Shown: positions 45,863 through 64,000 of the stretch, in pieces
Position numbering within the stretch: the first letter of the stretch is position 1
Layout: each line of letters begins with the position of its first letter
Source of the DNA: a virus
Length of the DNA stretch: 64,000 bases
Strand: one strand, 5' to 3'
Virus record (IMG/VR): IMGVR_UViG_3300034072_001395
Location: 1-64,000 of that record
Program-made: the position numbers and the translations under genes
Notes under the pieces: generated by a model
The model's database searches: none
What the model was told of the DNA's origin: nothing
The model's input: only the letters and a program-made list of their open reading frames with translations

Positions 45863-45867
45863 AGGGC

Positions 45868-48669: not shown

Positions 48670-48684
48670 CAGGTGTTCTCCTTC
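48667..48684 (-). repeat. Junction cassette GAAGGAGAACACCTGATG (RBS + overlapping stop/start)
   Basis: Identical at 51850-51867 (-) and 63491-63508 (+); variant at 50482-50498. Confidence 0.85.
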
Positions 48685-48980: not shown

Positions 48981-49228
48981 CACCGCACAACGCGGGCCAC
49001 GCGGCGCACGATCATCAGCGGCGTCACGAGGATGGCGTACACGACGACGAGCAGGTAGCCGAGGATCCGCTGCGAGAGCGACAGGACCATGTACCGCTGG
49101 GTCGCGTTGGCCGCGTCGACGTGGAGGTACACGCTGGCCGCGGTGAGCAGCAGATAGACGGCCGCGAGGGCCGCCAGGACAGGGTGCTGGTGCGCGAAGG
49201 TCAGGGCGTCCGAGAAGAAGGGCATCAT
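48980..49228 (-). CDS. Two-TM membrane protein (82 aa)
   Basis: Two hydrophobic helices with a basic C-terminus. Confidence 0.65.
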   Translation of the reverse strand: MMPFFSDALTFAHQHPVLAALAAVYLLLTAASVYLHVDAANATQRYMVLSLSQRILGYLLVVVYAILVTPLMIVRRVARVVR

Positions 49229-49275
49229 GGCGAAGCTCCGTTGTACCAGTCAAGTACCCCGGCAGTCGGCGTGCG

Positions 49276-49617
49276 TCAAGGCTCTTGAGGCTCGTTTGCG
49301 ATGTGCTTCTCCAGCGCGAGGATGTCCGCCTGGCGCGCTCCGAACGGCCACCGCTTCAAGCGCTCGGCCAGCTCTCGGGCCGCGGAGGCCACGTCGAACG
49401 CCTCCTCCGTGCCGGCCATCAGGTCGCAGATCACGGCGCCCGCGTAGGGATGCGCGCCCCTGCCGTGCCAGCACTCCGTCACGAGGCTGATGTGCTGCTT
49501 CAGCGCCCCGCGCGACCCCCACACCTTCCCGTTGCGGCTGGACTTGAGGTACGACCCTCCGCAGGCGAACCGGCCGTTGGGGAGGCGGATCTTGAAGGCT
49601 TCGTTGCGCTGCATCAC
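49276..49617 (-). CDS. Hypothetical phage protein (113 aa)
   Basis: FKIR...G.F..GG......GKVW...G.LK.H pattern that I recall from other phage proteins. Confidence 0.7.
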   Translation of the reverse strand: MMQRNEAFKIRLPNGRFACGGSYLKSSRNGKVWGSRGALKQHISLVTECWHGRGAHPYAGAVICDLMAGTEEAFDVASAARELAERLKRWPFGARQADILALEKHIANEPQEP

Positions 49618-50057
49618 GCGCCTCCGATGAGCGACACGCCCGTGCGCGCGAAGGTCGACACGTCCGCGATCACGTTCTGGTCGACGAGCACCCAGGAGCC
49701 GTGGTAGCCGCGCCCAGCGGGGTCCTGCCAGTTCCGCTTCCAGACGCAGAAGTCGCCGTCGGCGCCGACCATGATGGCCGCGTAGCGGAGGGAGCCGCCG
49801 TTCTCGCGCAACTCCGCGCTCATGTAGTAGATCGCCAGACCGCGGTTGCCCTCGTCACCGACGATCATGGTCGGCGGCGCGCCGAGTTCCGCGGCGAGCG
49901 TGACGATGCGCACGGCCTCGGCGATGACCGCATCCGGCACATCGTACCCGGCCGTCGTGACGCGCATGCCTCCGCGCCCTTGGATGGGACGCAGCGCGTC
50001 GGCGAGGCGCCGGGTGGCCGGGTCGTCAAAGATGGCGAGGTCGTCGGTGTCAGACAT
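49614..50057 (-). CDS. Hypothetical protein (147 aa)
   Basis: Operon packing. Confidence 0.65.
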   Translation of the reverse strand: MSDTDDLAIFDDPATRRLADALRPIQGRGGMRVTTAGYDVPDAVIAEAVRIVTLAAELGAPPTMIVGDEGNRGLAIYYMSAELRENGGSLRYAAIMVGADGDFCVWKRNWQDPAGRGYHGSWVLVDQNVIADVSTFARTGVSLIGGA

Positions 50058-50484
50058 CGGGGTGTTCCGAGACGTACTTGAGGGTGGCCCACAGAGCGTT
50101 GAAGCTGGCGGCCATGCAGGCGCGCTTGGCGCTGTCGCACTGCCGGATCGTCGCCCTGCGCCAGTCGGCCAAGGAGTCCCCGGGCGAACTGCGCCAAGCG
50201 CGCTCGGCCTCCGTCATCCGCGCCTCCGCCTCAGCGCGCGCCTTCCGCGCGTCGGCCCACGAGCGGGCGTGCTCGTCCAGAGAGCCGTCGGGCGCGATGA
50301 CGTTCAGCGCCGGAGGGAGAAGGCCCGCGAGCCCGGTGGACCCGACCTCGACGTAGCCCTGGCGTTTGAGGCTATCGAGCAGAGTCGCCTCGAAGTAGTT
50401 CGCCGCAGTAGCGCCACGCGCCAGGATGAGCAGCGCCGCTCGGATGTCGGCGCGGGAGGGCTCGGGGGTCTTGCGGGGTGTCAT
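50050..50484 (-). CDS. Winged-helix + helical hairpin protein, array A copy 5
   Basis: ALLILARG...LDSLKRQGYV. Confidence 0.7.
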   Translation of the reverse strand: MTPRKTPEPSRADIRAALLILARGATAANYFEATLLDSLKRQGYVEVGSTGLAGLLPPALNVIAPDGSLDEHARSWADARKARAEAEARMTEAERAWRSSPGDSLADWRRATIRQCDSAKRACMAASFNALWATLKYVSEHPDV

Positions 50485-50936
50485 CAGGTGCTCTCCAGCA
50501 ATGCACGGAGTTCGCGGACGGCGGCCTGGCGGGCATCGCGGGCGACCATCGCCGCCTGCCCTCCGCGGTCCTGCGCTTCGTCGAGGCGGAGCTGCGCCAT
50601 CGCGCGCTCGGAGTTCGTCACGGTGCGCCCCCAGGCGCGGTTGGCTTCGCGGACATCGTGCGCGGCGTCCAGAAGGGCGATGTGCGCAACCGCGTAGGCG
50701 CGCAGCACGGGGGACACCGCGTTGCCCGGCGTGAGATACCGGATGCCACGGGGCGTGACCTGGCGCTGCGTGAAGTCGTCGACGCAGGCGAGCCCCCGCA
50801 AGCAGGAGAGCATGTCGGGCGTGTAGCGCCGAGCGACGCCGTTGGCGAGGTCGAGGAGCGCCTTGCGCTGGCCCGGCGTCAGCTTGAGGCCGGCGAGGTC
50901 GAGGTGGCGGTCTGGCCGGTTGTCGTTGTGCGTCAC
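50484..50936 (-). CDS. Winged-helix + helical hairpin protein, array A copy 4
   Basis: LDLAGLKLTPGQRKALLDLANG...VTPRGIR. Confidence 0.75.
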   Translation of the reverse strand: MTHNDNRPDRHLDLAGLKLTPGQRKALLDLANGVARRYTPDMLSCLRGLACVDDFTQRQVTPRGIRYLTPGNAVSPVLRAYAVAHIALLDAAHDVREANRAWGRTVTNSERAMAQLRLDEAQDRGGQAAMVARDARQAAVRELRALLEST

Positions 50937-51397
50937 TTCCACTGTACCTCCAGAATGGAACGGAGTTCTTCGCCCGCCGCGGCGCAGGGCTCTTGACACG
51001 CAACCCACGCATCTCCACGGCGGCCAAGTGCTTCGTCGTGCGCGGAGATCGTAGCAACGACATACGGGGTCATCTGGAAGTGGTCGCGCAGGTAAGCGTC
51101 AGTCATCACCCGCTCAAGGGAGCCCACTGCTCGATCCAGAGCGAGGTACACCGCGAAAGCATCAGCGTAAGCCCTGAGCGCCTCGGAGATGACGTGCCCT
51201 GGCGTGACAAGGCGGATGCCCTTCGGTGTCGCGCGCTGCTGGCAGTACGGATCGAGGAGGCCGGCGTTGAGCAGCGCGATCCGTGTGCCCACCGCCATGC
51301 GAGGGCAGGTGCCGAGGGCGCGGAACAGCAAGGCGCGCTTCTGGCCGCGGGTCAGCGTTATGCCGTCGATGTCGAGGACTTCTTCGATGGTCGGCAT
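50933..51397 (-). CDS. Winged-helix + helical hairpin protein, array A copy 3
   Basis: LDIDGITLTRGQKRALL...LLNAGLL...ATPKGIR. Confidence 0.75.
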   Translation of the reverse strand: MPTIEEVLDIDGITLTRGQKRALLFRALGTCPRMAVGTRIALLNAGLLDPYCQQRATPKGIRLVTPGHVISEALRAYADAFAVYLALDRAVGSLERVMTDAYLRDHFQMTPYVVATISAHDEALGRRGDAWVACQEPCAAAGEELRSILEVQWK

Positions 51398-51852
51398 TAG
51401 AGGATCTCCCGAAGTTCTGCGAGAGCCACATCACGCGCGCTGCGGCACTTGTCAAGGGCCGCCTCGTACTTCGCGTGCTCGGCGGTCACAAGCGCGGAGA
51501 GCTGCGCGCTCGTGAGGTCGGGGAGGAGCCAGATCCGTCCTGCTTTGCTCCACTCGTGTGCGGCGGCGACGTATGCGTCGTGCGCGATGGACCACTGGAT
51601 GAGCGACCACGGTAAGGCAGCGTCAGGCTGCAAGCAGCGAGCGCCGAGGGGTGAGACCGTCAAGCAGCAGCTCTCGTAGTAGCACAGGAGGCCCTTGCGC
51701 AGAAGCGCGTCGACCACCTGCTGTTTGTAGCGCACAGGCGCGCCAGTTGCAAGGTCGCGCAGGAGCGTCACCTGCGCCGCCGACAGTTTGATGCCCGTGG
51801 TGTCGAGGTGCTCGCGGGCGCGCTCCTTCAAGTCGTTGGCGATCTTGTCCAT
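51397..51852 (-). CDS. Winged-helix + helical hairpin protein, array A copy 2
   Basis: LDTTGIKLSAAQVTLLRDLATG...LLRKGLL...VSPLGAR. Confidence 0.75.
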   Translation of the reverse strand: MDKIANDLKERAREHLDTTGIKLSAAQVTLLRDLATGAPVRYKQQVVDALLRKGLLCYYESCCLTVSPLGARCLQPDAALPWSLIQWSIAHDAYVAAAHEWSKAGRIWLLPDLTSAQLSALVTAEHAKYEAALDKCRSARDVALAELREIL

Positions 51853-52286
51853 CAGGTGTTCTCCTTCAGAAGGTGCGCCCGCAGAGCCTCGACCATGCGC
51901 GCCTCGGCCTCGGCGGCGAGAACGCGCATCGCTTCGTGCGCTGCGGCAGCCGCTTCGATCGCGTCGAGCAGCGTCGGAGTGAAGTTCTCCCGGTCGTTGG
52001 CGTAGTCGTTCACGCCCGTGAGCGTGTGGCCCGTCTCCCAGTGAAGCGATGCGGCATCGAACCACGCCTTGTAGGCGCGTGTGCCCGTGAAGTCGCGGGC
52101 CACCATGCCCAGGCCGAGCGATGTGAGCATCCAGGGCGGTGACTTGTCGTAGCGCCCGCGCTGGATCAGGCCGGCGTCGATCAGCTTGTGGCGCACGGCC
52201 CGCGGGATGCCGACCAGCATGCCGGTGAGGGCCACTTTGCGCAGATCCTCGATGAGGTGCCCGTGGGCGGCGGTGTTCTTGTTCAT
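51852..52286 (-). CDS. Winged-helix + helical hairpin protein, array A copy 1
   Basis: LIDAGLI...LTSLG; GGAG RBS; ends in KENT. Confidence 0.7.
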   Translation of the reverse strand: MNKNTAAHGHLIEDLRKVALTGMLVGIPRAVRHKLIDAGLIQRGRYDKSPPWMLTSLGLGMVARDFTGTRAYKAWFDAASLHWETGHTLTGVNDYANDRENFTPTLLDAIEAAAAAHEAMRVLAAEAEARMVEALRAHLLKENT

Positions 52287-52316
52287 GGCGGCTGCATCTC
52301 CAGTGATGACACACAT

Positions 52317-52345
52317 CGCATAGCCGGCCGAGCGTCCGAGCGCAA
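52317..52345 (-). promoter_or_regulatory. Putative promoter TTGCGC-17-TATGCG for the leftward paralogue operon
   Basis: About 30 nt upstream of ATG 52286; same hexamers as 1128-1156. Confidence 0.55.
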
Positions 52346-52718
52346 GGGGGCGCCCCAGCGAAACAGGTTGAACGAACCATCCAGCCCTATGGCAGCCCCC
52401 CATGCGCAAACACTCGAACCACCTGGCAACTCCTACCCTCACCGGCTCGAACGGGTCATGCAAGGGCCAGATAGCCAGGCGAGACTCGGTGCGAGAACAT
52501 TCAGCATCCAACCGCCATCAGGCGCAACAAGACCACCGCACACCCCCGCAACATCACACGCCTGGGGACGTTCCATAACGGACAACTTCGCCCGTCAGTC
52601 GTCGAGAACGTAGCATCGGTCAACGATCTCGTCACCGGAAGGCGCCAAACGGCCGTTCGGGCGCGGAAAGTGGGTCCGTAGACCTACGGATGACAAGAAG
52701 TACGTTCGGCGAGAACGT

Positions 52719-52743
52719 CGTATCGGTCAACGATCTCACCACT
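52719..52743. repeat. 25-bp dispersed repeat, copy 2
   Basis: Identical to 40112-40136. Confidence 0.85.
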
Positions 52744-52763
52744 CGGCTGTGTCGCGGTGCTCG

Positions 52764-52789
52764 CAAAAAGCCCCTTGGAGGAAGGAGGC
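52764..52789 (-). terminator. Intrinsic terminator
   Basis: Minus strand GCCTCCTT-CCTCC-AAGGGGC followed by TTTTT. Confidence 0.5.
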
Positions 52790-53363
52790 ACATGGTGACC
52801 GCGATGCGCGGTACTTGTGGCTGTAGAGTATGAGCCGGATACCGCACACCGGCCGTCAGGTGCGTAGGTGGTTCGCCCGATGTGGGTGGGCTATCGGCAG
52901 GTAGGCGGGTGGGCGGGTGGTCGGTGGGACATATGTAACTGGAGTTGGCTGGAGAATGACACATAGCAAACGGAAGGGGTCGTGTACCCCCCGCGCGTGT
53001 GTCGCGGGGGGACCGCCCCGGGGGCCCTTGAGCTGGCGCATCGTCGATGCCCCCATCGGTGTCATCGCTGGGGGAGGTGGGGGGTGTCCCTCTCACCCGG
53101 GGGGTGGGCGGACATCCCCTCTCCCCGCGCATGACCGGACGGTCATCATGCAACGGGCGCGCGGGGCGGCCCCTCCCTTGAGGGGGGCAGACTCACCCGA
53201 TGACACCGGGCGCGGCGCGGCGGGAGCTCCGGTGTTCGGGAGGCCCGGGCAGACTCACCCGTGGTCGACGGTTCGGGGCGCCTGTCAGGGGACAGGGAGG
53301 GGAGGCAGGGAGGGGGGCGCTTGTGGTAGCTGCCCCGGCGGCGGGCGCCTTGCCCCGAACGCG

Positions 53364-53396
53364 AAAAGCCCCCCGGCGCGTGAGCACCGAGGGGCC
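53364..53396 (-). terminator. Intrinsic terminator after the 53465-53959 gene
   Basis: Minus strand GCCCCTCGGTGC-TCAC-GCGCCGGGGGGC-TTTT. Confidence 0.65.
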
Positions 53397-53464
53397 TACA
53401 GGGCGGGCGGCTATGTCGGGCGGGCGAGGGTACCGGCTACCAGGGAGGCGCGCTCCTTGCCCCC

Positions 53465-53959
53465 TTAGCGCCCGATGCGCGGCCCGTCCGTCCGGCGCAC
53501 CAGCTCCGCCACCGACGGGCGAGCGGCCCGAATCCAGGCGCCCCCGATGGCGAGGGCTGCCACGTAGCCCGCCACGGTGAAGCCCGTACCAGCGGCAAGC
53601 TCCAGCATCGTCCACGGGGCGAGCCAAACGGCCAGCGTCAACGCGAGGGCGCCCGCCCGATCCGTCTGACGGTCCGCGGCGAGGGCGGCCCGGCGGGCGG
53701 AGCGGGTGACAGTCTCCCCGATGGCGCGGGTGAGGGTCAGCGCGGCGCGCCCGGCGCGGGTGAGGCTGCCCCGGTTGATGCGGATCGACCCGATGACCCG
53801 CTGACCCTTCGCGCCCACCTTCGACCGGCGCGAGACAACAACGGCAATCTCAAGCCCGTCACAAGCGCGGGTGAGGATCGATGCGACAATCGCCAGCGCG
53901 GCGATCGGGAAGGCGAGCAGGTACGCGAGGGACAGAGCGAAGAGGGCGGGGAGGAACAT
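53465..53959 (-). CDS. Membrane protein (164 aa)
   Basis: MFLPALFALSLAYLL... with three hydrophobic segments; AGGA RBS; downstream terminator. Confidence 0.55.
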   Translation of the reverse strand: MFLPALFALSLAYLLAFPIAALAIVASILTRACDGLEIAVVVSRRSKVGAKGQRVIGSIRINRGSLTRAGRAALTLTRAIGETVTRSARRAALAADRQTDRAGALALTLAVWLAPWTMLELAAGTGFTVAGYVAALAIGGAWIRAARPSVAELVRRTDGPRIGR

Positions 53960-54059
53960 CGGCGGGATCCTGTGTCGGTTCGGGGTGCCCACACTGTCTA
54001 TCGAGCTTCCATGGATTGTCCAGCCTGTTTTATAGATAGCTGCACTATCCGTAGGAGGG

Positions 54060-54098
54060 TGTTTCATGCAATGTTTCACCGTGTTTCACCGTGAAACA
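54060..54098. promoter_or_regulatory. parS-like palindrome TGTTTCAC-C-GTGAAACA plus two extra half-sites
   Basis: 54082-54098 equals canonical parS TGTTTCACGTGAAACA with one inserted base; half-sites at 54060 and 54072. Confidence 0.5.
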
Positions 54099-54308
54099 TG
54101 CAAGTAGATCCCCGTACAGTCTACGATCCGATCCGCAAGGCGGACAGATTCTGTCCGGGCCCGTCCATCGGGCGGGCGGGCTCGAGCTTCGCCCGGAGTG
54201 ACAGATATAGCGGTGTCGGTGGCGGCCTGGTCGATCGGCTACGATCCGCATGAATAGCGCACCTTAGAAGTTTTTTCGGAAAGTTAGAGGTTTCGGGGTC
54301 GATTCTAC

Positions 54309-54337
54309 TTGGCACGGGGCGTAGCGTTGACTATGCT
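54309..54337 (+). promoter_or_regulatory. Early promoter TTGGCA-17-TATGCT
   Basis: AT-rich upstream region; precedes the first rightward gene. Confidence 0.55.
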
Positions 54338-54406
54338 TTGTGTGTCGGCGGGCGGCGCCCCCGACAGATTGACCGGCTCCCCTCCCCCTCCCTACAGGAT
54401 GCCCCG

Positions 54407-54682
54407 ATGACCTTCGCGCCCGATACCGTCGAATACTGCCTCATCACCGCCCGCGGCTTCACCGCCTCCCCCGCGGGCGACGCCCTGACCGCCCCGAACG
54501 GCTGCCACGTCTCCTGCCCCGTCTCCATCGTTGACGGGCACGTCAACGTCACCGGCCCCGATGGGAACGATGTGGAAGACGTGCGCGTTCCCGTCTTTCC
54601 CGAAACTGCCCCGGGCGCGGTCGCGGTCTTCGTCGCCATGGCGACCCGCAAGGCCGCTGACATCATGCGCGCCCGGCGCTGA
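54407..54682 (+). CDS. Early hypothetical protein
   Basis: AGGA RBS; MTFAPDTVEY. Confidence 0.65.
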   Translation: MTFAPDTVEYCLITARGFTASPAGDALTAPNGCHVSCPVSIVDGHVNVTGPDGNDVEDVRVPVFPETAPGAVAVFVAMATRKAADIMRARR

Positions 54683-54755
54683 CCTGCCCCTCTGCCCGGC
54701 CGGCCCCTGCCCCGGTCCGGTCGGGCTCCCCCTCCCACGTTTGGGCCCGCCCGCC

Positions 54756-54792
54756 GGACCGCCGGGTAGCTTATCGAGCTATTCGACGGTCC
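54756..54792 (+). other. Intergenic long hairpin H1
   Basis: 16-bp stem with two G-U pairs and one mismatch. Confidence 0.65.
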
Positions 54793-54862
54793 GCCCGGCC
54801 CGCCCGGCCGACACGGGTGCGCAATACCGCGCACCCTCCCCTGTAGATACTGGAGTGTCGCC

Positions 54863-55072
54863 ATGTCCGGTAAGGCTTTCAAGCGCGCGATCCGCGCGGC
54901 GGTCAACGTCACCCGCGAGAACATCGCCTATGAGGCGGAGCAGGCCGAACACGCGGCCCGTTGCGCGCAGTCTCGCGCGGACATGGACGAGGCCCGGCGG
55001 GCTGCGGCCTTCGACGCTTCGGCCGAATGGCGCGCGGAGAACGCCGTGCGAGACTTCTACTACTTCGCCTGA
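54863..55072 (+). CDS. Early hypothetical protein (69 aa)
   Basis: GGAG RBS. Confidence 0.7.
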   Translation: MSGKAFKRAIRAAVNVTRENIAYEAEQAEHAARCAQSRADMDEARRAAAFDASAEWRAENAVRDFYYFA

Positions 55073-55095
55073 CCCTTGCGCCCCTGGTGCGGGCG

Positions 55096-55138
55096 CCCCT
55101 TGACCGGCCGGTCTGTTCCGGTCGGCCGGTCAACGGGC
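55096..55138 (+). other. Intergenic long hairpin H2
   Basis: TTGACCGGCCG / CGGCCGGTCAA perfect 11-bp core, extendable. Confidence 0.65.
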
Positions 55139-55198
55139 TATCGCGCCCATGCTGAACACTCGTTCAGGCCAGACCGACCTGGCCTAAAGGATGCTGCT

Positions 55199-55522
55199 AT
55201 GTCTCGCTTCGGCCGCAAGCCCTCCCCCCTGCTCACGCTCCCCCGCCCGCCGACGCCCTACCCGGAGCAGTCTTTCATCACGCTGGACGGTCGCGCCGTC
55301 TGGCACACGACGGTCGAGGCGCCGTGGTCCGGCCGCACGGCCAGCGGCTACGGCGCCCGGATCCCCACGTCTCGCGCCGTCTTCGACGGGCACCGCTGGC
55401 GGCGCGTCAAGGTCGCTGTGTGGTCGAATAGCGGATCGCCCTATGTCGGGCGAGACCTCCGCTCCGGGCGCAGCGTCGGCGGCTTCTTTGTCGCCGGTGA
55501 TCCCGGCTACCTCGCCCCGTAG
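55199..55522 (+). CDS. Conserved phage early protein
   Basis: TASGYG..IPT...RWRRV....SNSG..Y motif that I recall from other phage early regions; AAGGA RBS. Confidence 0.7.
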   Translation: MSRFGRKPSPLLTLPRPPTPYPEQSFITLDGRAVWHTTVEAPWSGRTASGYGARIPTSRAVFDGHRWRRVKVAVWSNSGSPYVGRDLRSGRSVGGFFVAGDPGYLAP

Positions 55523-55558
55523 GGGCGTCCCCGCTCCCCCCTTCGGGGGGCCCCGCGC

Positions 55559-55600
55559 TTGACGTAGCGGCCGGGTTTGTGCGCTCGCCTGCTACGTCAA
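55559..55600 (+). other. Intergenic long hairpin H3
   Basis: TTGACGTAGC / GCTACGTCAA core. Confidence 0.65.
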
Positions 55601-55664
55601 CCCCGGCGCCCGCCGGCTGCAAGGGCCGTCGCCCTTGCCCCTCACACTGTATGGAGTGTCCACA

Positions 55665-56090
55665 ATGCGCGGATCTGTCGCTTCCCTCCTCGTTACCTTC
55701 AATCGCATGACCGCCAGCCGGCCGGATCTCCGCGCCGCGGACGTGGTCAAGACCCTCGTCGACCGCCTGCCCCACGGGTCCGGCTTCGACGCCCCGCCGA
55801 CGGTCGAGATCCGCCCCGCCCGCCGCAAGGGCGCCCCGCCTGAGCTGCGGATCGCGGTCCCCTTTCACCGGATGAACGATGCCGGGTTCTACGTGGGATG
55901 GGTCGAGTACCGGATCGCCGTCTACCCCGCGTGGGACGGCGGGATCGACCTGACGATCCGGGGGCCCGACGCTGACGGGTTGCGGGAGTATGTCGAGACC
56001 ACGTACTTCAACACTTTGAGCGAACCCGCTGACGCTGACTACATCCCGGGCGAGGGCTGGCGCCTGCTGCCCCTCCCCGCCGACGGGTAG
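55665..56090 (+). CDS. Conserved phage early protein (LPHGSGFD motif)
   Basis: GGAGTGTCCACAATG start context; FH.MND.G.Y.GW motif. Confidence 0.7.
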   Translation: MRGSVASLLVTFNRMTASRPDLRAADVVKTLVDRLPHGSGFDAPPTVEIRPARRKGAPPELRIAVPFHRMNDAGFYVGWVEYRIAVYPAWDGGIDLTIRGPDADGLREYVETTYFNTLSEPADADYIPGEGWRLLPLPADG

Positions 56091-56136
56091 CCCGCCCGCC
56101 GGCTGCCCCGCCCTGCCCCTCCCGGGGGCCCCGAGC

Positions 56137-56171
56137 TTACCCGCCGGTCCGACCTTCGGATCGACGGGTAA
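56137..56171 (+). other. Intergenic long hairpin H4
   Basis: 16-bp stem TTACCCGCCGGTCCGA / TCGGATCGACGGGTAA; flanks shared with H3. Confidence 0.65.
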
Positions 56172-56213
56172 CCCCGGCGCCCCGCCGGACCCGCCCACCT
56201 ATGGAGATATCCC

Positions 56214-56438
56214 ATGCCCTCCCCGATCCGCTTTGACGTGTACCGCTCCGATCGCCACGGGCCCGCCCTCGCCGCTGACGGTTGGCCCGATGTCACCCGC
56301 GCCCGCGCCGCCCGCGCCCGCCGGCTGAGCTACGCGCGCGCCGTCAAGGTCGACCGTGCGATCGCCGCGGCCGCCGGCGCCGTGGCCGTCGGGGCTGAGC
56401 TTCCCCGCCGGGCCGGCCGCCGGGGCGATCGGATCTGA
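56214..56438 (+). CDS. Early basic hypothetical protein (74 aa)
   Basis: GGAG RBS. Confidence 0.6.
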   Translation: MPSPIRFDVYRSDRHGPALAADGWPDVTRARAARARRLSYARAVKVDRAIAAAAGAVAVGAELPRRAGRRGDRI

Positions 56439-56457
56439 GGATCTTTCGGCCGGACGC

Positions 56458-56486
56458 TTGACGGTATCCGGCCGATAGAGTAAGAT
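56458..56486 (+). promoter_or_regulatory. Early promoter TTGACG-17-TAAGAT
   Basis: Near-consensus; shares CGCTTGACGGTATCCGGC with the 58603 promoter. Confidence 0.75.
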
Positions 56487-56569
56487 AGCAACGTAACCCG
56501 GGCGCTCCGCCGCCCCCCTCCCCTCCCCGCCGCCGGCCGGTCTGCCGGCACCCCGTAGGAGTGTCCACA

Positions 56570-56941
56570 ATGCCCCGCAAGCCCGACCCCCGCGCCGCCG
56601 TCGCGCGGATCCTCAACGCCCCCCGCCGCCACACCGATCACATCATGGGCGTGGTCGACGGGAAGATCGCCGTCATCGCCCGCCTGACGTGGTCGCTCCC
56701 GAAGGACGGCATGGGCCCGCTCCGGGTCGCCGTCTGGAGCTGGGGCCCCGACGGGGGCGCCGCGTGCGACGGGCCTCAGGTCGGCAGCGCCTCCGGGTGC
56801 GGCTACGATAAGGAGACCGCCGCCCTCACCGGCTTGACGATCGGGGGCGTGGAGCTGGGCGATCACTGCGACCACCGCGGCCGCCCCCGGCTGGAGACCG
56901 TCTGCAACGAGCGCGGGTGGTGCTGGGTCCGCGGCCGATAG
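56570..56941 (+). CDS. Conserved phage early protein (ASGCGYDK.TAAL motif)
   Basis: GGAGTGTCCACAATG start context. Confidence 0.7.
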   Translation: MPRKPDPRAAVARILNAPRRHTDHIMGVVDGKIAVIARLTWSLPKDGMGPLRVAVWSWGPDGGAACDGPQVGSASGCGYDKETAALTGLTIGGVELGDHCDHRGRPRLETVCNERGWCWVRGR

Positions 56942-57093
56942 CAGTTACCCACGGCGAACGGCGCCCGCCGACAAACGGCGCCGGCACGGTCTGTATCGGA
57001 GGTCTGCCGCGTGGTGCGGCGACCGCCGGTGTAGTCCGCCCCGCGGCTGTACGATGCCGCATAGGTCCGGGGTATGGGCCGGGAGAGAGATTG

Positions 57094-57498
57094 ATGGATG
57101 ACCGCCGCCCTGTTTGGGGCCTGTACGCGCACCACGTCGCCGCCCACCCGCGCGGATACTGGCCGGAACACGTCGAGGTCCTGCTCGTGGACCGCGCCTT
57201 CAACGGCGGCGGCGTCATGGACGCATGCGCCGCGTTCTACGCCGACCCGACGACGGGCAAGGCTCAGGGGGACCCGACGGATCCGGGGGAGTGTTCCGCC
57301 GCCGAACGTCCCTACACCGTCCATGACGGCACGATCGATGACGCCGGCATCCTGACCCCCGGCCCCGCCTTCCGCCCGCTCCCCCTCCCCCCGTCCGTCC
57401 GCCGGGCGCGCGACTGGCCCACCGCCATGCGCGCCGCGACCGGGAAGCGGACCCTGCCCCGCCTGCTCCGCGCCGCGCGGGAGGTGACCCGTGCCTGA
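57094..57498 (+). CDS. Early hypothetical protein
   Basis: GGAG RBS; overlaps the next gene. Confidence 0.6.
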   Translation: MDDRRPVWGLYAHHVAAHPRGYWPEHVEVLLVDRAFNGGGVMDACAAFYADPTTGKAQGDPTDPGECSAAERPYTVHDGTIDDAGILTPGPAFRPLPLPPSVRRARDWPTAMRAATGKRTLPRLLRAAREVTRA

Positions 57499-57862
57499 GT
57501 TCTACGTCATCCGCTACACTGAGCGATACCCCGCTCCCCCCGATGACGCCGACGACGCCGACGACGGGTGCCCGGATCCCGAGGTCGACGGGCCGGAAGA
57601 GATCCCGATCGACCTCGACGAGCTGGACCTCGACGATGCCGACGGCTTCCGCGACGCCGTGCGCGAGGTCGGCCGCGCCGTCGACGTGTGCGGCGAGCCG
57701 TCCTGCCTGCCGCTCCCGGCCGGGGATCTGGACCACGTCTGGGTCACGGGTGAGGGGAGCATGGACCCCCGCACGGGCGAGACTGAGCGCCCCAGCTTCC
57801 ACCGCGGCACCGTCCCCGGCCCTTTGTGGGCCGCCTTCCTCCGCCACCGCTTTGTCAAGTGA
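57491..57862 (+). CDS. Acidic early hypothetical protein (123 aa)
   Basis: GGAGG RBS; Asp-rich. Confidence 0.65.
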   Translation: MPEFYVIRYTERYPAPPDDADDADDGCPDPEVDGPEEIPIDLDELDLDDADGFRDAVREVGRAVDVCGEPSCLPLPAGDLDHVWVTGEGSMDPRTGETERPSFHRGTVPGPLWAAFLRHRFVK

Positions 57863-57873
57863 GGACATTCACC

Positions 57874-58107
57874 ATGCTGAACCCCGATGATCTGACCTTG
57901 CGCAAGGGCGCCGTCAGCGTTGACCTCTACTGCGGCGATCGCGTGATCGCGCGTGACCTGCTCGACACGGCGGCCGCGGAAGACGCCGTGTTTGACGCCC
58001 TCGTCTCGGCCGGCATGACGCGCGGGCCAGCAAGCACCGCCGCCCGTCGGCGGGTGCGAGACGAGGAGGCGCGCCTGACCGCGCTGTACCCGCCGCCCGC
58101 CGAGTAG
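57874..58107 (+). CDS. Early hypothetical protein
   Basis: GAGGA RBS. Confidence 0.65.
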   Translation: MLNPDDLTLRKGAVSVDLYCGDRVIARDLLDTAAAEDAVFDALVSAGMTRGPASTAARRRVRDEEARLTALYPPPAE

Positions 58108-58232
58108 CCCCCACCGCGCCCGCCTCGCCCCCTCCCCCACGCCGGGGGAGGGCGTGACACCGGCCCCTCTCCCCTCCCTCTCCCCGTGCGAGGGGGGCCG
58201 CTTTCACGCCCTCGCCTATCTGGAGTGCCCCT

Positions 58233-58583
58233 ATGCCCTCGCCTGGCTTTACCTGCCCCTCCCCCGTCGCCCGCGCCGCGCTTCGGCGCTGGCTCGCCGC
58301 CCTCCCCGCCGGCCGCCGCGCCCGGCTCGACGCCGACGATCTGCCGGGCTGGTACGATGCCGATCTTGGGGAGCTGCTCGCCGGCTGGCCGGACGGCGGC
58401 GCCCTTCGGACCTGCCCCGCGTGCCGGGGCACGGGCTGGGCCGTGGCGGGCGCCGTGGCGGGCGAGGTCGGCGGTGAGGTCTGCCCGATCTGCGACGGTG
58501 AGCGGGTGCAGGTCTACACCGGGTCTGACGCCGTGATCTTGGGGATCACTGAGGCCGATCGGGCCGCCGCGCTGGCCGACTGA
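58233..58583 (+). CDS. Protein with a DnaJ-type CxxCxGxG zinc finger
   Basis: CPACRGTG...CPICDG. Confidence 0.7.
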   Translation: MPSPGFTCPSPVARAALRRWLAALPAGRRARLDADDLPGWYDADLGELLAGWPDGGALRTCPACRGTGWAVAGAVAGEVGGEVCPICDGERVQVYTGSDAVILGITEADRAAALAD

Positions 58584-58602
58584 GATTGTTTGCGGGTATC
58601 GC

Positions 58603-58631
58603 TTGACGGTATCCGGCTGGAATGATAAGTA
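58603..58631 (+). promoter_or_regulatory. Early promoter TTGACG-17-TAAGTA
   Basis: Duplicate of the 56458 promoter upstream half; TG extension. Confidence 0.65.
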
Positions 58632-58683
58632 AACAGTGTCCCCCGCCGGCCGCAACGCCGGCCACCTGAGAGGAGAGACCGCC

Positions 58684-58956
58684 ATGACGTATGCGATGAT
58701 CCATATCCCCGGCGACTGCCGCACCCCCACGGGGCGCCTCGCGCCGGCCGCCCGGAAGCGCATCGTGCGCGCCCTCGCCCGCCGCTGGGGCGCGAACCCC
58801 ACCACCGGCGCGCACCTCGTCGGGGTGCGCAACGGGACCGTGACCGTGGCGTGCTCGGACTTCCACGCCGGGCAGGGATACAACCTGCGCGACGCGCTGG
58901 AGGCCGTCACGGTCGCCGCCCTCGCCGGCGGCCGGCGGGAGGTGTCCGATGTCTGA
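58684..58956 (+). CDS. Early hypothetical protein
   Basis: GAGGAG RBS. Confidence 0.65.
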   Translation: MTYAMIHIPGDCRTPTGRLAPAARKRIVRALARRWGANPTTGAHLVGVRNGTVTVACSDFHAGQGYNLRDALEAVTVAALAGGRREVSDV

Positions 58957-59278
58957 GGTCACCCTGACGGTTTACGACGCGGGCCGCCCCTGGATCTTGC
59001 GGGTTGTCCCGCAGGGCGGCCGCTACGGCCTCGACGACTGCCTGACGTGGGATGATCCGTCGCCCCTCGTGGAGTTCTACGATGCGCGCGGCATCGACCG
59101 CTTCGGCCCGCGCGGTCAGTTCGCCAGCCGCTACCGGCTGGCGGAGCTGGCCGGCCACGAGGGCGGCCTGCTCCTGCACGGCGGCGTGCCGGAATGGTCC
59201 GTGTCCGCCGAGACCGTGAGCATCGCCGTGGGCCTCGCCCGCAACGTGGCTGAGGGCCTGGAGGTGGCCGATGTCTGA
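58949..59278 (+). CDS. Conserved phage early protein (VEFYD...GQF.SRY motif)
   Basis: Motif that I recall from other phages; flanked on both sides by GGAGGTG(T/G)CCGATGTCTGAG. Confidence 0.75.
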   Translation: MSEVTLTVYDAGRPWILRVVPQGGRYGLDDCLTWDDPSPLVEFYDARGIDRFGPRGQFASRYRLAELAGHEGGLLLHGGVPEWSVSAETVSIAVGLARNVAEGLEVADV

Positions 59279-59516
59279 GCCGTACAACCGCCCGTGTGAC
59301 CCGGGCTTCAACCCCCGCCTGCCCCACGTCGTCCGGGTCGACGCCCGCTGCTACGTCGTCGCGCGGCAGGATCCTACCGACCCCCGCGTCTGGTGCGCGA
59401 ACGCGGGGAAGTACGGCACGGCGTACGGCCGACTGCCCGACCTCCCCACGCTGGCCGGCGTGCGCGTCTTCCGGTGCGCGCCGCCCGCGCAACGCTACCT
59501 CGACGGGGGCTTGTGA
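59271..59516 (+). CDS. Early hypothetical protein (81 aa)
   Basis: GGAGG RBS; coupled. Confidence 0.65.
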   Translation: MSEPYNRPCDPGFNPRLPHVVRVDARCYVVARQDPTDPRVWCANAGKYGTAYGRLPDLPTLAGVRVFRCAPPAQRYLDGGL

Positions 59517-59929
59517 TGCCTGCGACCCTGCCTGACCGACTGCGCTTCACGCGCTACGCCGACGCCCGGCACGCCGTCGACACCGCCGCCGACGTGCGGG
59601 ATGTCGCGGATGGCCTGGCCGAAGACTTCGGCCTGCTCGTCGAGGCCCTCGACGACTTGGCCGACGAGGTCGAGGCCGTCCGCAAGGAGGGTGACGACGC
59701 CGTCGCCGCCGTCGAGGCGAAGTACGCCGACGCGGCGGCCGCCGTCAAGGCTGCCGAGGAGCCGCTTCAGCGGCAGATCGCGGACCTCGAACACGAGCTG
59801 CGCCGGACGCTGACCCGTCGTAACGATCTCCTGCGCCGTCTGGCGAAGGAGGTCAAGGCCGCCCGAAAGGACCCGACGCTCTGCCTCGATCGCATCGACG
59901 CGATCCTGGCAACCCACCTCGCCGGCTGA
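59516..59929 (+). CDS. Coiled-coil hypothetical protein
   Basis: TGATG coupling; heptad pattern. Confidence 0.7.
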   Translation: MPATLPDRLRFTRYADARHAVDTAADVRDVADGLAEDFGLLVEALDDLADEVEAVRKEGDDAVAAVEAKYADAAAAVKAAEEPLQRQIADLEHELRRTLTRRNDLLRRLAKEVKAARKDPTLCLDRIDAILATHLAG

Positions 59930-59942
59930 GAGGCCCCCCGCC

Positions 59943-60278
59943 ATGACCACCGTGCCACCCACCGCGCCCCTCGTCCTCCCCTTCGCCGCCGTCGACGCTG
60001 ACGGGGTGCCGCACTTCGGCACGGTCACGGTCACGGGGCTGCGCCGCCTCCCGATGATCGCCCTGGTCGGGGTGCCCGACCCTCGGACTGCCCGCGACCT
60101 CATCGATCTGGCTTTCGCTGGGGCGCGCCTGAGCCGCCCGCGGTGGCGCCTCGTGGTCGAAGTCGACGTGCCGGGCGCTGACGAGCGCACCGTGGCGCGC
60201 ATGGGCCCCGGCATCCATGCGGCCGTGACGATGAGCTTGATGGTTTACGCCGCCCGGTGCGGTCTGGTTGTTGAGTAA
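59943..60278 (+). CDS. Stand-alone ComM/YifB (ChlI-like) N-terminal domain-like protein
   Basis: LPMIALVGVPD...RDLIDLAF.GA.L..P.WRLVV resembles ComM LP...IVGLPD...R.RV..AL...G...P..RITV. Confidence 0.5.
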   Translation: MTTVPPTAPLVLPFAAVDADGVPHFGTVTVTGLRRLPMIALVGVPDPRTARDLIDLAFAGARLSRPRWRLVVEVDVPGADERTVARMGPGIHAAVTMSLMVYAARCGLVVE

Positions 60279-60281
60279 CCC

Positions 60282-60310
60282 TTGCGCCTGTCGTATGGCC
60301 GAGATACTGT
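60282..60310 (+). promoter_or_regulatory. Promoter TTGCGC-17-TACTGT
   Basis: AT-rich intergenic patch with correct spacing. Confidence 0.55.
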
Positions 60311-60399
60311 ATAGAGAGACATCGAGCCCGCCGGTCGGCCACGTCGACCCGCGCGCCCGGTGCCTCTGCCGGACCTGACCGCCTGAACTTGGAGCCCAC

Positions 60400-60693
60400 A
60401 TGCCCACCACCCGTCACGACTTCTTCCCCCCTCCGGCCATCGACCAGGACGTGCGGGCCATCCGCAGCGCCCTCGCCATCGCATACGGCGGGGCATCGCA
60501 GTACGGGCCCGCGGTGTTCGGGGCCTGCATCTTTGGCCACCAGAACAACGGCGGCATCCTGAGCGCGTACCCGCCGGCCGAGGTGGCCGCGGAGTTCGGC
60601 CGACAGGAGGCCGAGCAGTTTGAGGCGCTCGACGCTGCCGTCGAGGCCGCCGTCGTGCTGCAGGCCGTGCAGGCCCTTTGGGGGCAGGTGTGA
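60400..60693 (+). CDS. Hypothetical protein (97 aa)
   Basis: GGAG RBS. Confidence 0.65.
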   Translation: MPTTRHDFFPPPAIDQDVRAIRSALAIAYGGASQYGPAVFGACIFGHQNNGGILSAYPPAEVAAEFGRQEAEQFEALDAAVEAAVVLQAVQALWGQV

Positions 60694-60763
60694 GCGCCTG
60701 GACCTTCGCCGCCGACGCGGCCCTCACCACCGCCCACGCCTCCTCTCACCTCTGGAGCCTGCA

Positions 60764-61375
60764 ATGAATGACCCGACCTTCCTGCACTGGAACATTCACC
60801 TTGCCGTCGCGGGCGCGCTTTCCGTCGCCAGCCTCAACCTCGCGGGCCCCGCTCGTGACGGCGAGAAGCCCACGCATGCTTTCGTTCGCCGCATGCTCCC
60901 GCAACTCCGCCGGGCCTACGGAAGCCTGGTCAACATCAGCGGCGTGGAGGCCCTCATCGAGCCGTGGAACGTCCTCGGCTGCGAGATCGCAACCCGCATG
61001 GGCTGGATCGATGCCAGCGCGTTTGTGAACTTCCGGTCGGTGCGGCACACCCAGGAGGGCCACGACATCTCGCGTGCGACGGAGATCCTCTACAAGTGGG
61101 CGCTTCGCGGCTACCCTGCTGGCTGGGTGGTGCCTCCGGCCAAGGAGCCCTTCTACTGGATCCGCATCGCCGATGTCCGGTTCGCGCTCAAGTTCACCCT
61201 CGGGCAGCACGACCCGCGGCCCATCACCTGCGCCATCCTCCCCGAGGAGGCCATGGTTCCGTGGCCGGTGGCCGGCCAGCCCGCGCCCGCCGAGGCAGCC
61301 TACGCCGTCCGCTACCACGCGCGCCCCGAGGACACGCGGCAGGCCGTCAAGGATCTTTCCGGGGAGGACTGGTAG
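60764..61375 (+). CDS. Hypothetical protein (203 aa)
   Basis: GGAG RBS; MNDPTFLHWN. Confidence 0.7.
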   Translation: MNDPTFLHWNIHLAVAGALSVASLNLAGPARDGEKPTHAFVRRMLPQLRRAYGSLVNISGVEALIEPWNVLGCEIATRMGWIDASAFVNFRSVRHTQEGHDISRATEILYKWALRGYPAGWVVPPAKEPFYWIRIADVRFALKFTLGQHDPRPITCAILPEEAMVPWPVAGQPAPAEAAYAVRYHARPEDTRQAVKDLSGEDW

Positions 61376-61648
61376 ATGCCCGTCTACAACGTCTCACGCT
61401 ACCGCCCCGGCCCCAACGCCACGCCGCAGCCCGGCCTCATCGAGCGCGCAGTCATCGTCTCGGAGCGCGGCCTGCCCCCCGAAACGCCCGGCACGCTGTT
61501 CTTCTGCGACACGGCGGTCGCCGTTCGGGCCGCTGGCCTCGGCCGGAAGGACGTGGCGGGCGAGCAACTCGGCTGGGTCCTGCGCGACGACGCCCCTGCG
61601 TTTGCGCCCCCGCCGCCGACCTGGGCGGACCTCACCCGCATCCCGTGA
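61376..61648 (+). CDS. Hypothetical protein (90 aa)
   Basis: GGAGG RBS; abuts the previous stop. Confidence 0.65.
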   Translation: MPVYNVSRYRPGPNATPQPGLIERAVIVSERGLPPETPGTLFFCDTAVAVRAAGLGRKDVAGEQLGWVLRDDAPAFAPPPPTWADLTRIP

Positions 61649-61658
61649 TGGAGCACCC

Positions 61659-61910
61659 GTGACTTCCCCTGGGACCCTCTCCACCCTCACCCTCCGCCGC
61701 TCCGCCCTCCGAGGCGCCCGTGGCGTTGGCCGCCTGGCCCGGCTGCGCCCCCTCGACCTGGGCCGCTGGCTCCTCGTGGTGCCGGCCACCGCCCGCGTCG
61801 GGCGCATCCACCGGCTCCGCCTGATCGCCGAGGACTACATGCCCGGCGACCTGTCGGACACCTTCACCCTGGTCCCGGGCCATCGCCGGCCCGACCTCCT
61901 CCCCTTCTGA
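61659..61910 (+). CDS. Basic hypothetical protein
   Basis: GGAG RBS; GTG start. Confidence 0.55.
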   Translation: MTSPGTLSTLTLRRSALRGARGVGRLARLRPLDLGRWLLVVPATARVGRIHRLRLIAEDYMPGDLSDTFTLVPGHRRPDLLPF

Positions 61911-61918
61911 GGCCCCGC

Positions 61919-62254
61919 ATGACTGACCCCTCCCCTCCGCCGATGTCCGCCCGCCCGTGGGGGCTGGATGACGACCGGCTCCGCGAGCTGGTCGCCACCA
62001 GCACGGCCGCGACGTTCGATGTCGAGGCCATCGCCGCTGACCTCGGCCGCACGGTGTCCGCCGTGCGGATGCGGATGTCCTCCCTCGGCATCCCCTCACC
62101 CCGCCCGCAGGGCAAGCCGCGGAGCGTGGTGTCCTTCTCGGACCCCACCCTGTACGCGAAGCTCCAGGCGCATGGCGATCCGGGCGAGGTTGCCAAGTCC
62201 ATCATCACCGACTACTTCGCTGCGCAGGAGGCCGCCCGTGTCCACGATCGCTGA
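61919..62254 (+). CDS. Myb-like HTH + ribbon-helix-helix-like DNA-binding protein
   Basis: W..DDD.L.EL...IAADLGRT.SAVR.R...LG; C-terminal SVVSFSD..LY.KL....EV.K.II.DYF. Confidence 0.65.
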   Translation: MTDPSPPPMSARPWGLDDDRLRELVATSTAATFDVEAIAADLGRTVSAVRMRMSSLGIPSPRPQGKPRSVVSFSDPTLYAKLQAHGDPGEVAKSIITDYFAAQEAARVHDR

Positions 62255-62411
62255 CCAGTCCGCCACAGCGGCGGCGCTGCTGATGCTCGCCGCCGCCATC
62301 AACCTCCTCCTCGGCGTGACGCTTCACGTCGACCACCTGCTCGCCGCCCTGGCGTGCAGCACCATCTCCGCCCTGGCTCTCACCGTCCACGTCCTCACCC
62401 GGAGCGTCTGA
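62238..62411 (+). CDS. Small two-TM membrane protein
   Basis: GGAGG RBS; hydrophobic. Confidence 0.55.
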   Translation: MSTIADQSATAAALLMLAAAINLLLGVTLHVDHLLAALACSTISALALTVHVLTRSV

Positions 62412-62413
62412 CT

Positions 62414-62704
62414 ATGCCCATCACCGCAAACGGAACGCCCACGTTCAACGTCGGCCGCCTGCCCTTCACCCCGAGCCTGCGCGTCGAGCCCGACACCGAC
62501 GGCGACAAGTGCGCCCTGGTGGTCGGCAACTGCATCGACCCCATGGGCGCCTGGGGGGAGTGGTACGTCACGGACACGCCCGCCTACTCCTACAAGGAGC
62601 TGGAGGGCCTGCTCGCCGAGGCCGTCGTGCGCGGCGACCTCGACACCGCCCAGCGCGACGCGCTGCTGACCCAGGCGCATGGCGTCTGGAAGGTGGTCGC
62701 ATGA
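62414..62704 (+). CDS. Hypothetical protein
   Basis: GGAG RBS; MPITANG. Confidence 0.65.
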   Translation: MPITANGTPTFNVGRLPFTPSLRVEPDTDGDKCALVVGNCIDPMGAWGEWYVTDTPAYSYKELEGLLAEAVVRGDLDTAQRDALLTQAHGVWKVVA

Positions 62705-63093
62705 GCGCGCGTGTGATGGGTATTCTGAATGCCCGGCCGGCGACGGCCTTCGAGAAGAGCCAGATCGACAAGCTGATCGTCCTCGTCCGTGAGGAGGAGG
62801 GCATCAAGGTCGAGCTGTTCGAGGACCGTATCGCCCTTCTCACTGAGGACGACGACACCCTGGCGTGCGCTGCGGATCGCCTCTCACTCTGCATCGAGTT
62901 CACCGGCAGCGCCCTGTCGTGGCCGAACATCACGGGGGAGTGGCGCTATCGGGAGGACGACACGCGCTGCCGCGTTGACGAGATGGTCCGCTACGCCTAC
63001 GGCAAAGAGGCCCAGGCCATCGCCAACCTCACCGGCGTCGCCATCACGGACGACTGCACCGGCGCCGTCTACCGCCCCGAGGAGATCAACTGA
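62701..63093 (+). CDS. Hypothetical protein
   Basis: ATGA / TGATG coupling. Confidence 0.65.
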   Translation: MSARVMGILNARPATAFEKSQIDKLIVLVREEEGIKVELFEDRIALLTEDDDTLACAADRLSLCIEFTGSALSWPNITGEWRYREDDTRCRVDEMVRYAYGKEAQAIANLTGVAITDDCTGAVYRPEEIN

Positions 63094-63506
63094 TGGATCC
63101 GATCATCAAGCTGCCCGCCCCCATCGAGACGCCCGCCACCGACCGCCTGCGCGCCCTGATCGCGGCCTGCGCTGAGGCTGACGCGAAGTACCGCGCGGCG
63201 TCCACCGCGCATGACGCCGAGGTCCTGGCGGCGGCCTACGCGGGCGACACGGAGAGGGTCCAGGCCCTCGCGCAGTCGGCGCCGAAACCCAACACCGATC
63301 CGGAGCAGGCCCTTCGGCGCGAGGCAAGCGGCTTGCGCACGGCGGCGTGGCAGGAATACAGCGCCCTCCAAGTGCGGGCGCACACGCTGGAGGTGCTGAT
63401 CGCGTGCGCGGATGAGGCGCTGTACGAGTGCCGTCGCCGCCAGGATGACATCCACGCCGCGATCGAGTACGCCGAGAACCTGCCCGCAGAGAAGGAGAAC
63501 ACCTGA
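63093..63506 (+). CDS. Helical hypothetical protein (137 aa)
   Basis: Ends in KENT within the junction cassette. Confidence 0.7.
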   Translation: MDPIIKLPAPIETPATDRLRALIAACAEADAKYRAASTAHDAEVLAAAYAGDTERVQALAQSAPKPNTDPEQALRREASGLRTAAWQEYSALQVRAHTLEVLIACADEALYECRRRQDDIHAAIEYAENLPAEKENT

Positions 63507-63730
63507 TGGGCGTCATCGGTACGCCGGCCACCTACCGCTGCGATGCGTGTGGTGCGCTCGGCCAGGGCTTCACCCGCGAGATCCCCGACGGCTGGCTGGC
63601 GATCGTGTGGGTGCCCGGCTACCTTCGCCCGCCCGGCTTCGTGCCGCCACCCACCCGCGTCGTGTGCTCGAAGGCTTGCGCCGACGCGCTCGCCCCCCTC
63701 TGCAAGCCCCCGGAGATCGATCTGCCATGA
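63506..63730 (+). CDS. Small zinc-finger protein
   Basis: CDAC...P.GW...CSKAC. Confidence 0.7.
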   Translation: MGVIGTPATYRCDACGALGQGFTREIPDGWLAIVWVPGYLRPPGFVPPPTRVVCSKACADALAPLCKPPEIDLP

Positions 63731-63993: not shown

Positions 63994-64000
63994 TCCCGCT

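Follow-up and report, generated by a model that had tools for sequence, protein, structure and literature searches.

A hairpin family with a conserved base and a freely varying top in the gaps of a putative early operon of an uncultured high-GC phage

The window analysed here, 64,000 nucleotides long and comprising bases 1-64000 of the 96,570-bp IMG/VR virus record IMGVR_UViG_3300034072_001395, carries a rightward gene block in which each of the 120-180-nt gaps between genes at 54683-58232 contains a stem-loop, six of them strong and the seventh shorter. One family among these stems, which we call type-A, combines a conserved, mismatched base with an upper stem whose sequence varies freely while its pairing is kept. 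The structures covary, they are conserved across phages, and the borders of mosaic segments fall at their junctions. We tentatively interpret the stems as intercistronic RNA punctuation hairpins that would act in processing and/or 3' stabilisation, like the RNase III sites of phage T7, an interpretation to which the analysis below gives somewhat less than an even chance. On this reading the family would add a new form, a hairpin with a conserved base, to arrangements already described in T7 and T4.

The record has a 127-bp terminal repeat and a G+C content of ~70%. No close DNA relative was found among deposited phages, and the large terminase shares ~23% identity with its counterparts in Rhizobium and Ralstonia phages. 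Genes were called with our own codon-bias caller, a heuristic. A leftward block of tightly packed genes (44216-53959) is separated by a divergent non-coding region (53960-54406) from the rightward block, which begins at 54407 and in which the first genes are 120-180 nt apart while later ones overlap or almost touch. We infer that the rightward block is early from its position beside the divergent control region. The gaps are taken to be non-coding because third-position G+C is low (~63% by direct count in the open frame of gap 56942-57093, versus 80-93% in genes) and because relatives show 1-nt indels in them.

Stem-loops in the gaps of the rightward block

All six long stems that an original prediction, made from the letters of this DNA, had placed in the early intergenic gaps are present, and they occur in the rightward operon only. 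Each helix comprises 20-30 pairs with 1x1 mismatches and is located 18-60 nt past a stop codon and 16-57 nt ahead of the next start. In the seventh gap (56439-56569) the hairpin is shorter and shares its position with a sigma70-like promoter. The long stems and one further stem-loop are as follows, with z-scores for single-hairpin RNA folds against 200 dinucleotide shuffles.

54743-54805, + strand: H1, a diverged type-A member; long stem-loop whose base reads GCC-C-G-C ... C-C-C-GGC (z -3.72)
55086-55148, + strand: H2, long stem-loop with the inner stem TTGAC...GTCAA, closed by a C.C mismatch (z -4.30)
55543-55616, + strand: H3, type-A, with left flank 55547-55560, inner stem 55559-55600 and right flank 55599-55611 (z -3.03)
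56120-56189, + strand: H4, type-A, with left flank 56125-56138, inner stem 56137-56171 and right flank 56170-56182 (z -3.42 on the + strand, -4.55 on the - strand)
56980-57044, + strand: H6, long stem-loop (z -2.71), its sequence unrelated to that of the hairpin at the same place in the related phage G001
58144-58217, + strand: H7, long stem-loop with a C/T-rich 18-nt loop (z -4.39); an upstream C-run is an alternative partner of its 5' arm
60303-60378, + strand: further intergenic stem-loop, a marginal match to the type-A model described below (17 bits, E 2)

The comparison with shuffles, one of the two results that the original prediction had named as decisive, came out in favor of the stems, with z from -2.71 to -4.39 for single hairpins; z for whole gaps ranged from -5.0 to -0.9. 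Folds of the stems with DNA parameters also beat shuffles (z -1.3 to -3.6). A genome-wide 70-nt scan placed the stems among the strongest peaks, yet equally strong hairpins occur elsewhere, some within genes. What is distinctive is the regular placement of the stems and their common base, not folding energy alone. The view that G-U pairs favor the sense RNA had to be given up: the complementary strand folds equally well (z -2.8 to -4.6), and in a reciprocal test the strand used for choosing the hairpins always looked better (16 of 21 for the + strand, 19 of 21 for the - strand), so that the apparent sense preference is ascertainment bias only.

A fixed base carries a covarying top

As first noticed from the letters alone, H3 and H4 have common flanks, GGGGCCCCG(C/A)GCTT on the left and AACCCCGGCGCCC on the right, around inner stems that are unrelated in sequence and both paired. 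The bases of H1, H3 and H4 are built alike. Below the inner stem, all of them have three base pairs, then either a C.C or an A.C mismatch, a single G-C pair and another C.C mismatch. In the fixed type-A base the three pairs read CCG/CGG, with H1 the more distant member. The upper 13-18 pairs are free in sequence so long as pairing holds. Pair 11 of the inner stem keeps an invariant G, in most cases as G.U.

Relatives of the phage carry the same design. G001, a syntenic 94-kb IMG/VR contig, shares ~70% identity with the phage in core genes and is unalignable over 42.5-62.5 kb of the present genome. The early genes of G001 are not homologous to those described here, and its rightward early block has the same arrangement of gaps with stems. 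Two G001 stems hold the H3/H4 flanks around two more unrelated inner stems; there are thus four unrelated inner stems inside the same flanks, in two phages with non-homologous neighboring genes. Near-copies are found in metagenome contigs, L031 close to this phage, and L020 and L030 close to G001.

An alignment of seven type-A copies from this phage, G001, L031, L020 and L030 (A1) provided the check by covariation with homologous loci, and pairing is kept while the inner stems change. Standard pairs occupy 96% of its cells, as against 32-47% with the partners slid, double-sided changes occur at 11 of the 26 pairs, and the covariation score was matched by none of 500 shuffles. RNAalifold independently gives the same main helix and turns the outermost four pairs into two small hairpins. 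The outer arms proposed originally, extended with repeated C.C mismatches, therefore stand in part: the mismatches occupy fixed sites within the base, whereas the outermost four pairs give way to the small hairpins in that fold. The flank pairs in A1 never vary and are thus uninformative on pairing. Flanks that stay unchanged between genomes at 70% identity nevertheless speak for a sequence-specific constraint.

A covariance model built from this alignment (R1) scores H3 at 83 bits and H4 at 79 bits and finds H1, which was absent from the training set (54731-54813, 41.4 bits, E 1e-4). It weakly matches H2 (22 bits, E 0.29), a G001-type stem (L020:1921-1997) and the stem at 60303; all of these additional matches are on the + strand in early gaps. 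The model is asymmetric: scores of true members are 69-84 bits when read on the + strand but fall to 27-34 bits on the - strand. A scan of 52000-64000 with Rfam 15 gave no match up to E = 1, which rules out a known RNA family as the identity of the stems. When the flank patterns were sought in contigs of viruses and of metagenomes and in a genome set with a single representative of each species, only chance matches, which did not fold and stayed below 24 bits with R1, were obtained outside the lineage. Within the genomes searched, the stems thus do not correspond to a REP-like repeat of a host. More distant relatives, reached through the 835-aa protein or the 123-aa family described below, are without the hairpin family.

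Transcription of the operon and the absence of terminator signatures

Three promoter-like sites were located in and around the block.

54309-54337, + strand: sigma70-like promoter-like site TTGGCA-17-TATGCT, 5' of the first rightward gene (54407-54682)
56443-56486, + strand: 9-bp hairpin with, in its loop, the -35 hexamer of a sigma70-like promoter, TTGACG-17-TAAGAT
58594-58629, + strand: second promoter-in-hairpin module, by eye a near-copy, at 58601, of the promoter at 56458

The 18-mer CGCTTGACGGTATCCGGC is common to the latter two modules and recurs at 58600 in the second. Their upstream arms differ and pair with different parts of the conserved spacer, in both cases placing the -35 hexamer in a hairpin loop.

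No sigma70-like promoter was found in the gaps of H1-H4, H6 or H7. The TTGAC at the foot of H2 and H3 was considered as a -35 element and rejected, as no -10 hexamer lies at the right spacing, and the stems themselves were set aside as promoters because the type-A gaps are without hexamers. The lack of a U-tail reported originally is borne out: a terminator scan finds nothing at the stems, whose 3' sides are C-rich by direct reading. They do not qualify as canonical intrinsic terminators, being without a U-tract.

No phage RNA polymerase was detected; an 835-aa protein that ends the early block carries methyltransferase motifs. The product of a 3729-aa open frame (2780-13969, - strand) is without a PHROG match, a Pfam match over cut-off or a solved relative, and comparison at the level of families and catalytic motifs revealed no polymerase in it. 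Since no phage RNA polymerase was found, the rightward operon is most simply read as transcribed by host RNA polymerase. Hairpin promoters for a phage RNA polymerase likewise received no support. Those of the N4 type have a 5-7-bp stem and a 3-nt loop and serve a virion RNA polymerase, whereas the stems here are far longer.

A first alternative makes the stems transcription attenuators or terminators that grade the operon, with the promoters at 56458 and 58601 restarting it. They would then be the stem-loop half of a cassette resembling the T4-type PeSL, a conserved ~100-nt intergenic motif in which a G-run/C-run stem-loop precedes the Shine-Dalgarno sequence and, at the end of the motif, the start codon belonging to a small orphan gene (PMC2839356, PMC4122927). 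PeSL stem-loops terminate efficiently in reporters (PMC2839356), the GC-rich stems here stand directly past stop codons, the spacers are C-rich and G-poor as at Rho-loading sites, and a hairpin is combined with a sigma70-like promoter in two gaps here and in one of G001 (46515-46647). However, the long stems are without a U-tract, the scan shows no terminator-like site there, and four strong stems with no promoter lie between the 54309 promoter and gene 56214-56438, where efficient termination would silence genes. We consider attenuation unlikely; hairpins that lack a tail terminate poorly with the bacterial polymerases tested.

Proposed RNA punctuation and the comparison with T7

Under the interpretation that we favor, the stems would be cis-elements of a polycistronic early transcript made by host RNA polymerase. 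A double-strand-specific factor, for which host RNase III is the prime candidate, would read the conserved mismatched base, and the RNA would then be cut and/or the stem retained to protect a 3' end. In this way every small accessory gene could have a stabilised stretch of message to itself, translated from a ribosome-binding box of the standard type. The recurring 13-30-nt blocks would also serve as homologous crossover points at which single genes are swapped, deleted or inserted, because the same blocks stand at many junctions. No RNase III gene was found in the phage genome. The RNA-processing or stabilising element of the original prediction thus retains the arguments from an intercistronic position in a host-promoter operon, from the absence of U-tails and own promoters, and from the mismatched base, and loses the one from G-U pairs.

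The early RNase III sites of T7 were reportedly described by Dunn and Studier in 1983 as intercistronic irregular hairpins without U-tails. Like the stems here, these sites (R0.3 to R1.3) are irregular 50-70-nt hairpins in the gaps of an early operon transcribed by host polymerase, they lack a U-tail, and they comprise about two helix turns broken by unpaired bases. In T7, conservation is higher near the internal loop than in the upper stem, and the stems here likewise vary most at the top. The two differ in that the GC-rich base here has single C.C mismatches, whereas the T7 sites have an asymmetric internal loop. In addition, the flanks here do not vary over 13-14 nt, and the two sets are dissimilar in sequence.

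Several observations weigh against RNA punctuation. Long stems are absent at some equivalent junctions (H2 in L031, the G001 48.6-kb stem in L020), and each is therefore dispensable. Neither folding energy nor G-U use prefers a strand, and for H4 the complementary strand folds better (-56.3 versus -44.7 kcal/mol). Independent type-A sequences number only about four or five. Finally, invariant flanks of 13-14 nt exceed what bacterial RNase III is known to need. The flank invariance points to a sequence-specific partner. At its furthest, the mismatched base might be the site of a dedicated phage or host factor that acts on the folded strand, either cutting the RNA at cassette borders or moving cassettes without a classical integrase. 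We regard this as very improbable, but if true, the array would represent the phage equivalent of integrons or of processed, CRISPR-like transcripts.

Architecture of the junctions

The junctions have a common order, in which the stop codon is followed by a C-rich, G-poor spacer, the long GC-rich stem-loop, often a short stem-loop of 6-8 bp, and a GGAGTGTyC..ATG box. The elements other than the long stems are as follows.

54814-54835, + strand: short stem-loop of 8 perfect pairs, located 3' of H1 and 5' of the ribosome-binding box, by direct reading and fold
54852-54865, + strand: conserved ribosome-binding box GGAGTGTCGCC-ATG of gene 54863-55072
55151-55184, + strand: two mini stem-loops, CTGAAC-N4-GTTCAG and then a 7-bp stem, adjoining the ribosome-binding site of gene 55199-55522
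55537-55550, + strand: C-run/TTCG/G-run mini hairpin that rivals the outermost H3 pairs and is preferred by RNAalifold
55619-55638, + strand: short perfect 8-bp stem-loop 3' of H3, in which the sole L031 change falls in the loop
55647-55667, + strand: conserved leader and ribosome-binding box CTGTATGGAGTGTCCACA-ATG of gene 55665-56090
56951-56986, + strand: 36-nt non-coding block directly 5' of H6, conserved with G001 but for one 1-nt indel

GGAGTG[TC]C has five copies on the + strand of the genome, four of which (54852, 55653, 56558 and 58222) each directly precede a start codon. The leader 15-mer at 55647-55667 is identical at 56558, and its 13-mer is identical in G001. The mini stem-loop CTGAAY-N4-RTTCAG (55151-55166; L014, G001 44876-44893) is kept in both phage lineages, and the C-G to U-A double change in its stem occurs in each of them. 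Unpaired bases of the spacers are 45-47% C and 13-14% G. As a general rule for gaps the sense-strand C-skew is weak, 0.08-0.09 in rightward and ~0 in leftward gaps. CCCCT/CCCTC tracts, which are complementary to GGAG, are frequent in gaps (for example in 54683-58232 and 52287-53464) and sense-biased for flanking genes in both directions, with 123 sense and 37 antisense tracts in both genomes.

This build invites another explanation, that the stems are RNA sites for a phage or host regulator, such as a nut/put-type antiterminator or a translational repressor, or that their C/T-rich tracts hide the ribosome-binding site, with recognition at the invariant base. The flank sequence that is invariant across phages, the fixed mismatches and the G at inner pair 11 would fit such a site, as would the conserved ribosome-binding box that adjoins the stems and the sense bias of the GGAG-complementary tracts. 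A precedent is provided by the SAS/ESAS elements of Cluster K mycobacteriophages, start-associated repeats of unknown partner (PMC3203893). There too a conserved asymmetric box with a ribosome-binding site stands before many start codons, imperfect inverted repeats around a variable spacer precede the box in about half of the cases, and the repeats are conserved across sub-lineages before unrelated genes. The ESAS repeats, however, are 17 bp long around a 4-13-bp spacer, next to a 13-bp SAS box, whereas the repeats here are 13-14 nt long and enclose a paired, covarying stem of 33-42 nt; the consensus sequences, including the box GGAGTGTyC.. found here, are unrelated. A regulator site appears rather unlikely to us, as no RNA-binding protein candidate was found among the 52 genes at 40-64 kb, the stems, at 16-57 nt from the start codon, are mostly too distant for occlusion, and they are dispensable in relatives.

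Mosaic borders fall at the junctions

In 11 homologous junctions, 11.7% of stem columns vary, compared with 31.9% of unpaired columns. All three changes in the H3 junction of L031 (U.G to C-G, a C.C to C.U mismatch, and one loop base) are structure-neutral. Junctions 3 and 4 of this phage share 95% and 91% identity with those of L031, compared with 66% for the gene that they enclose. Upstream of that gene, L031 has a whole gene replaced, with borders a few codons past the start and just before the C-run of H3. Among the relatives, other genes are replaced from just past the start codon to just short of the stop. A small gene, cassette X, lies between two copies of a type-A junction in G001 and L030, where L020 has a single junction. 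A deletion in L030 begins inside a hairpin and ends in a C-rich spacer. Marine and estuary contigs show more replaced segments with borders in junctions, for example 57864 to 58129, where the gene upstream of H7 is replaced and H7 kept. Exchange borders are as frequent next to the hairpins, within the leader or the first few codons, as they are inside the hairpins.

The suggestion that the hairpins define single-gene cassettes therefore holds to the extent that single genes are replaced, lost and gained with borders in the junctions, but it finds no dedicated hairpin recombinase. In the genome, the best match to the tyrosine recombinase family PF00589 reaches 13.6 bits in the wrong frame context (cut-off 27.1), and no serine recombinase or resolvase was found. 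The mosaicism fits homologous exchange between repeated junction blocks, similar to that of PeSLs, rather than a hairpin recombinase. Comparison of the relatives shows recombination at the repeated blocks, an evolutionary consequence of their repetition.

PeSLs also combine a stem-loop, a Shine-Dalgarno sequence and the start codon of an orphan gene in one conserved intergenic motif, a gene may lie between two copies of the motif in one phage where a relative has a single motif, and the motifs crowd in a hyperplastic accessory region. The type-A junctions differ in being without a sigma70-like promoter, which is the defining part of a PeSL. In length their stems exceed those of PeSLs two- to threefold, the base being conserved while the top is free to vary, and they have no U-rich or AT-rich tract.

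If exchange were all, the junctions might be mere linkers for homologous recombination with no direct role in expression, their palindromes perfected by template switching. The mosaic pattern between relatives and the loss of single stems are compatible with this, as is a change of the apex between G001 and L020 that bears the signature of templated correction. There, three clustered substitutions (L014:5770-5912 versus L020:1907-2046) make the unpaired G001 apex a perfect 4-bp TCGA/TCGA extension, as would be expected of template switching within a quasi-palindrome. Yet fixed mismatches and an invariant base would be needless in a linker, and the differing inner stems break homology instead of extending it. 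Moreover, junctions that are 91-95% identical enclose a gene of 66% identity, and stem columns are less variable than the adjacent spacers. We judge pure linkers to be very unlikely.

A role at the DNA level, as a hairpin or cruciform on one or both strands, would involve either a bound protein, for example the HU-like one of the phage, or structure-specific cassette recombination resembling that of integron attC sites. Like attC, the junctions have conserved imperfect inverted ends with fixed unpaired bases around a variable, self-pairing center, and they border single-gene cassettes that are gained and lost. Folding shows no strand bias, the stems folded as DNA beat shuffles, and an HU-family gene is present at 46712-47023. 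Unlike attC, they are accompanied by no integron-type integrase, show no RYYYAAC/GTTRRRY end boxes by direct reading, and have no fixed border point. The attC-like reading thus fails two defining tests, the integrase and the end boxes. Other evidence also disfavors a DNA site: no tyrosine recombinase over cut-off and no serine recombinase was found, borders fall in the leader, in first codons and just before stops rather than at a single hairpin point, and the L030 deletion resembles illegitimate, not site-specific, joining. We hold a DNA-level function to be quite unlikely.

Phages carry their functions for host takeover and anti-defence among the accessory early genes. We know of no detailed account, other than for T4-type PeSLs, of how such genes are exchanged as plug-ins and expressed. 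The present phage, from a distant, uncultured high-GC lineage, may follow the logic of PeSLs with a different part, a stem of fixed base and free top. The conserved base offers a compact handle toward the factor that reads the stem, the covariance model could be used for tracing the lineage in metagenomes, and the junction borders could serve to delimit exchangeable early-gene cassettes.

Genes in and around the block

The 835-aa protein (L033:1468-3972; genome 65468-67975, past the window) is without a Pfam, PHROG, PDB or deposited-phage match. It contains NPPY and DPAAGTGN motifs of methyltransferases and therefore resembles an N6-adenine DNA methyltransferase, a putative assignment. Its relatives, at 30-60% identity, are spread over 17 IMG/VR contigs with GC contents of 23-70% and, in some cases, lengths above 250 kb. 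The HU/IHF-family DNA-binding protein gene (46712-47023, - strand) lies within the leftward block, and a NUDIX hydrolase gene (43422-43907, + strand) is the last of the block that precedes it. Within the early block itself, gene 56570-56941 encodes a 123-aa protein with invariant G-C-G-Y-D-K and H-C-D motifs that matches no known family. It has 12 metagenome homologues at 42-96% identity and occurs also in unrelated phage contigs of lower GC that are without the hairpins.

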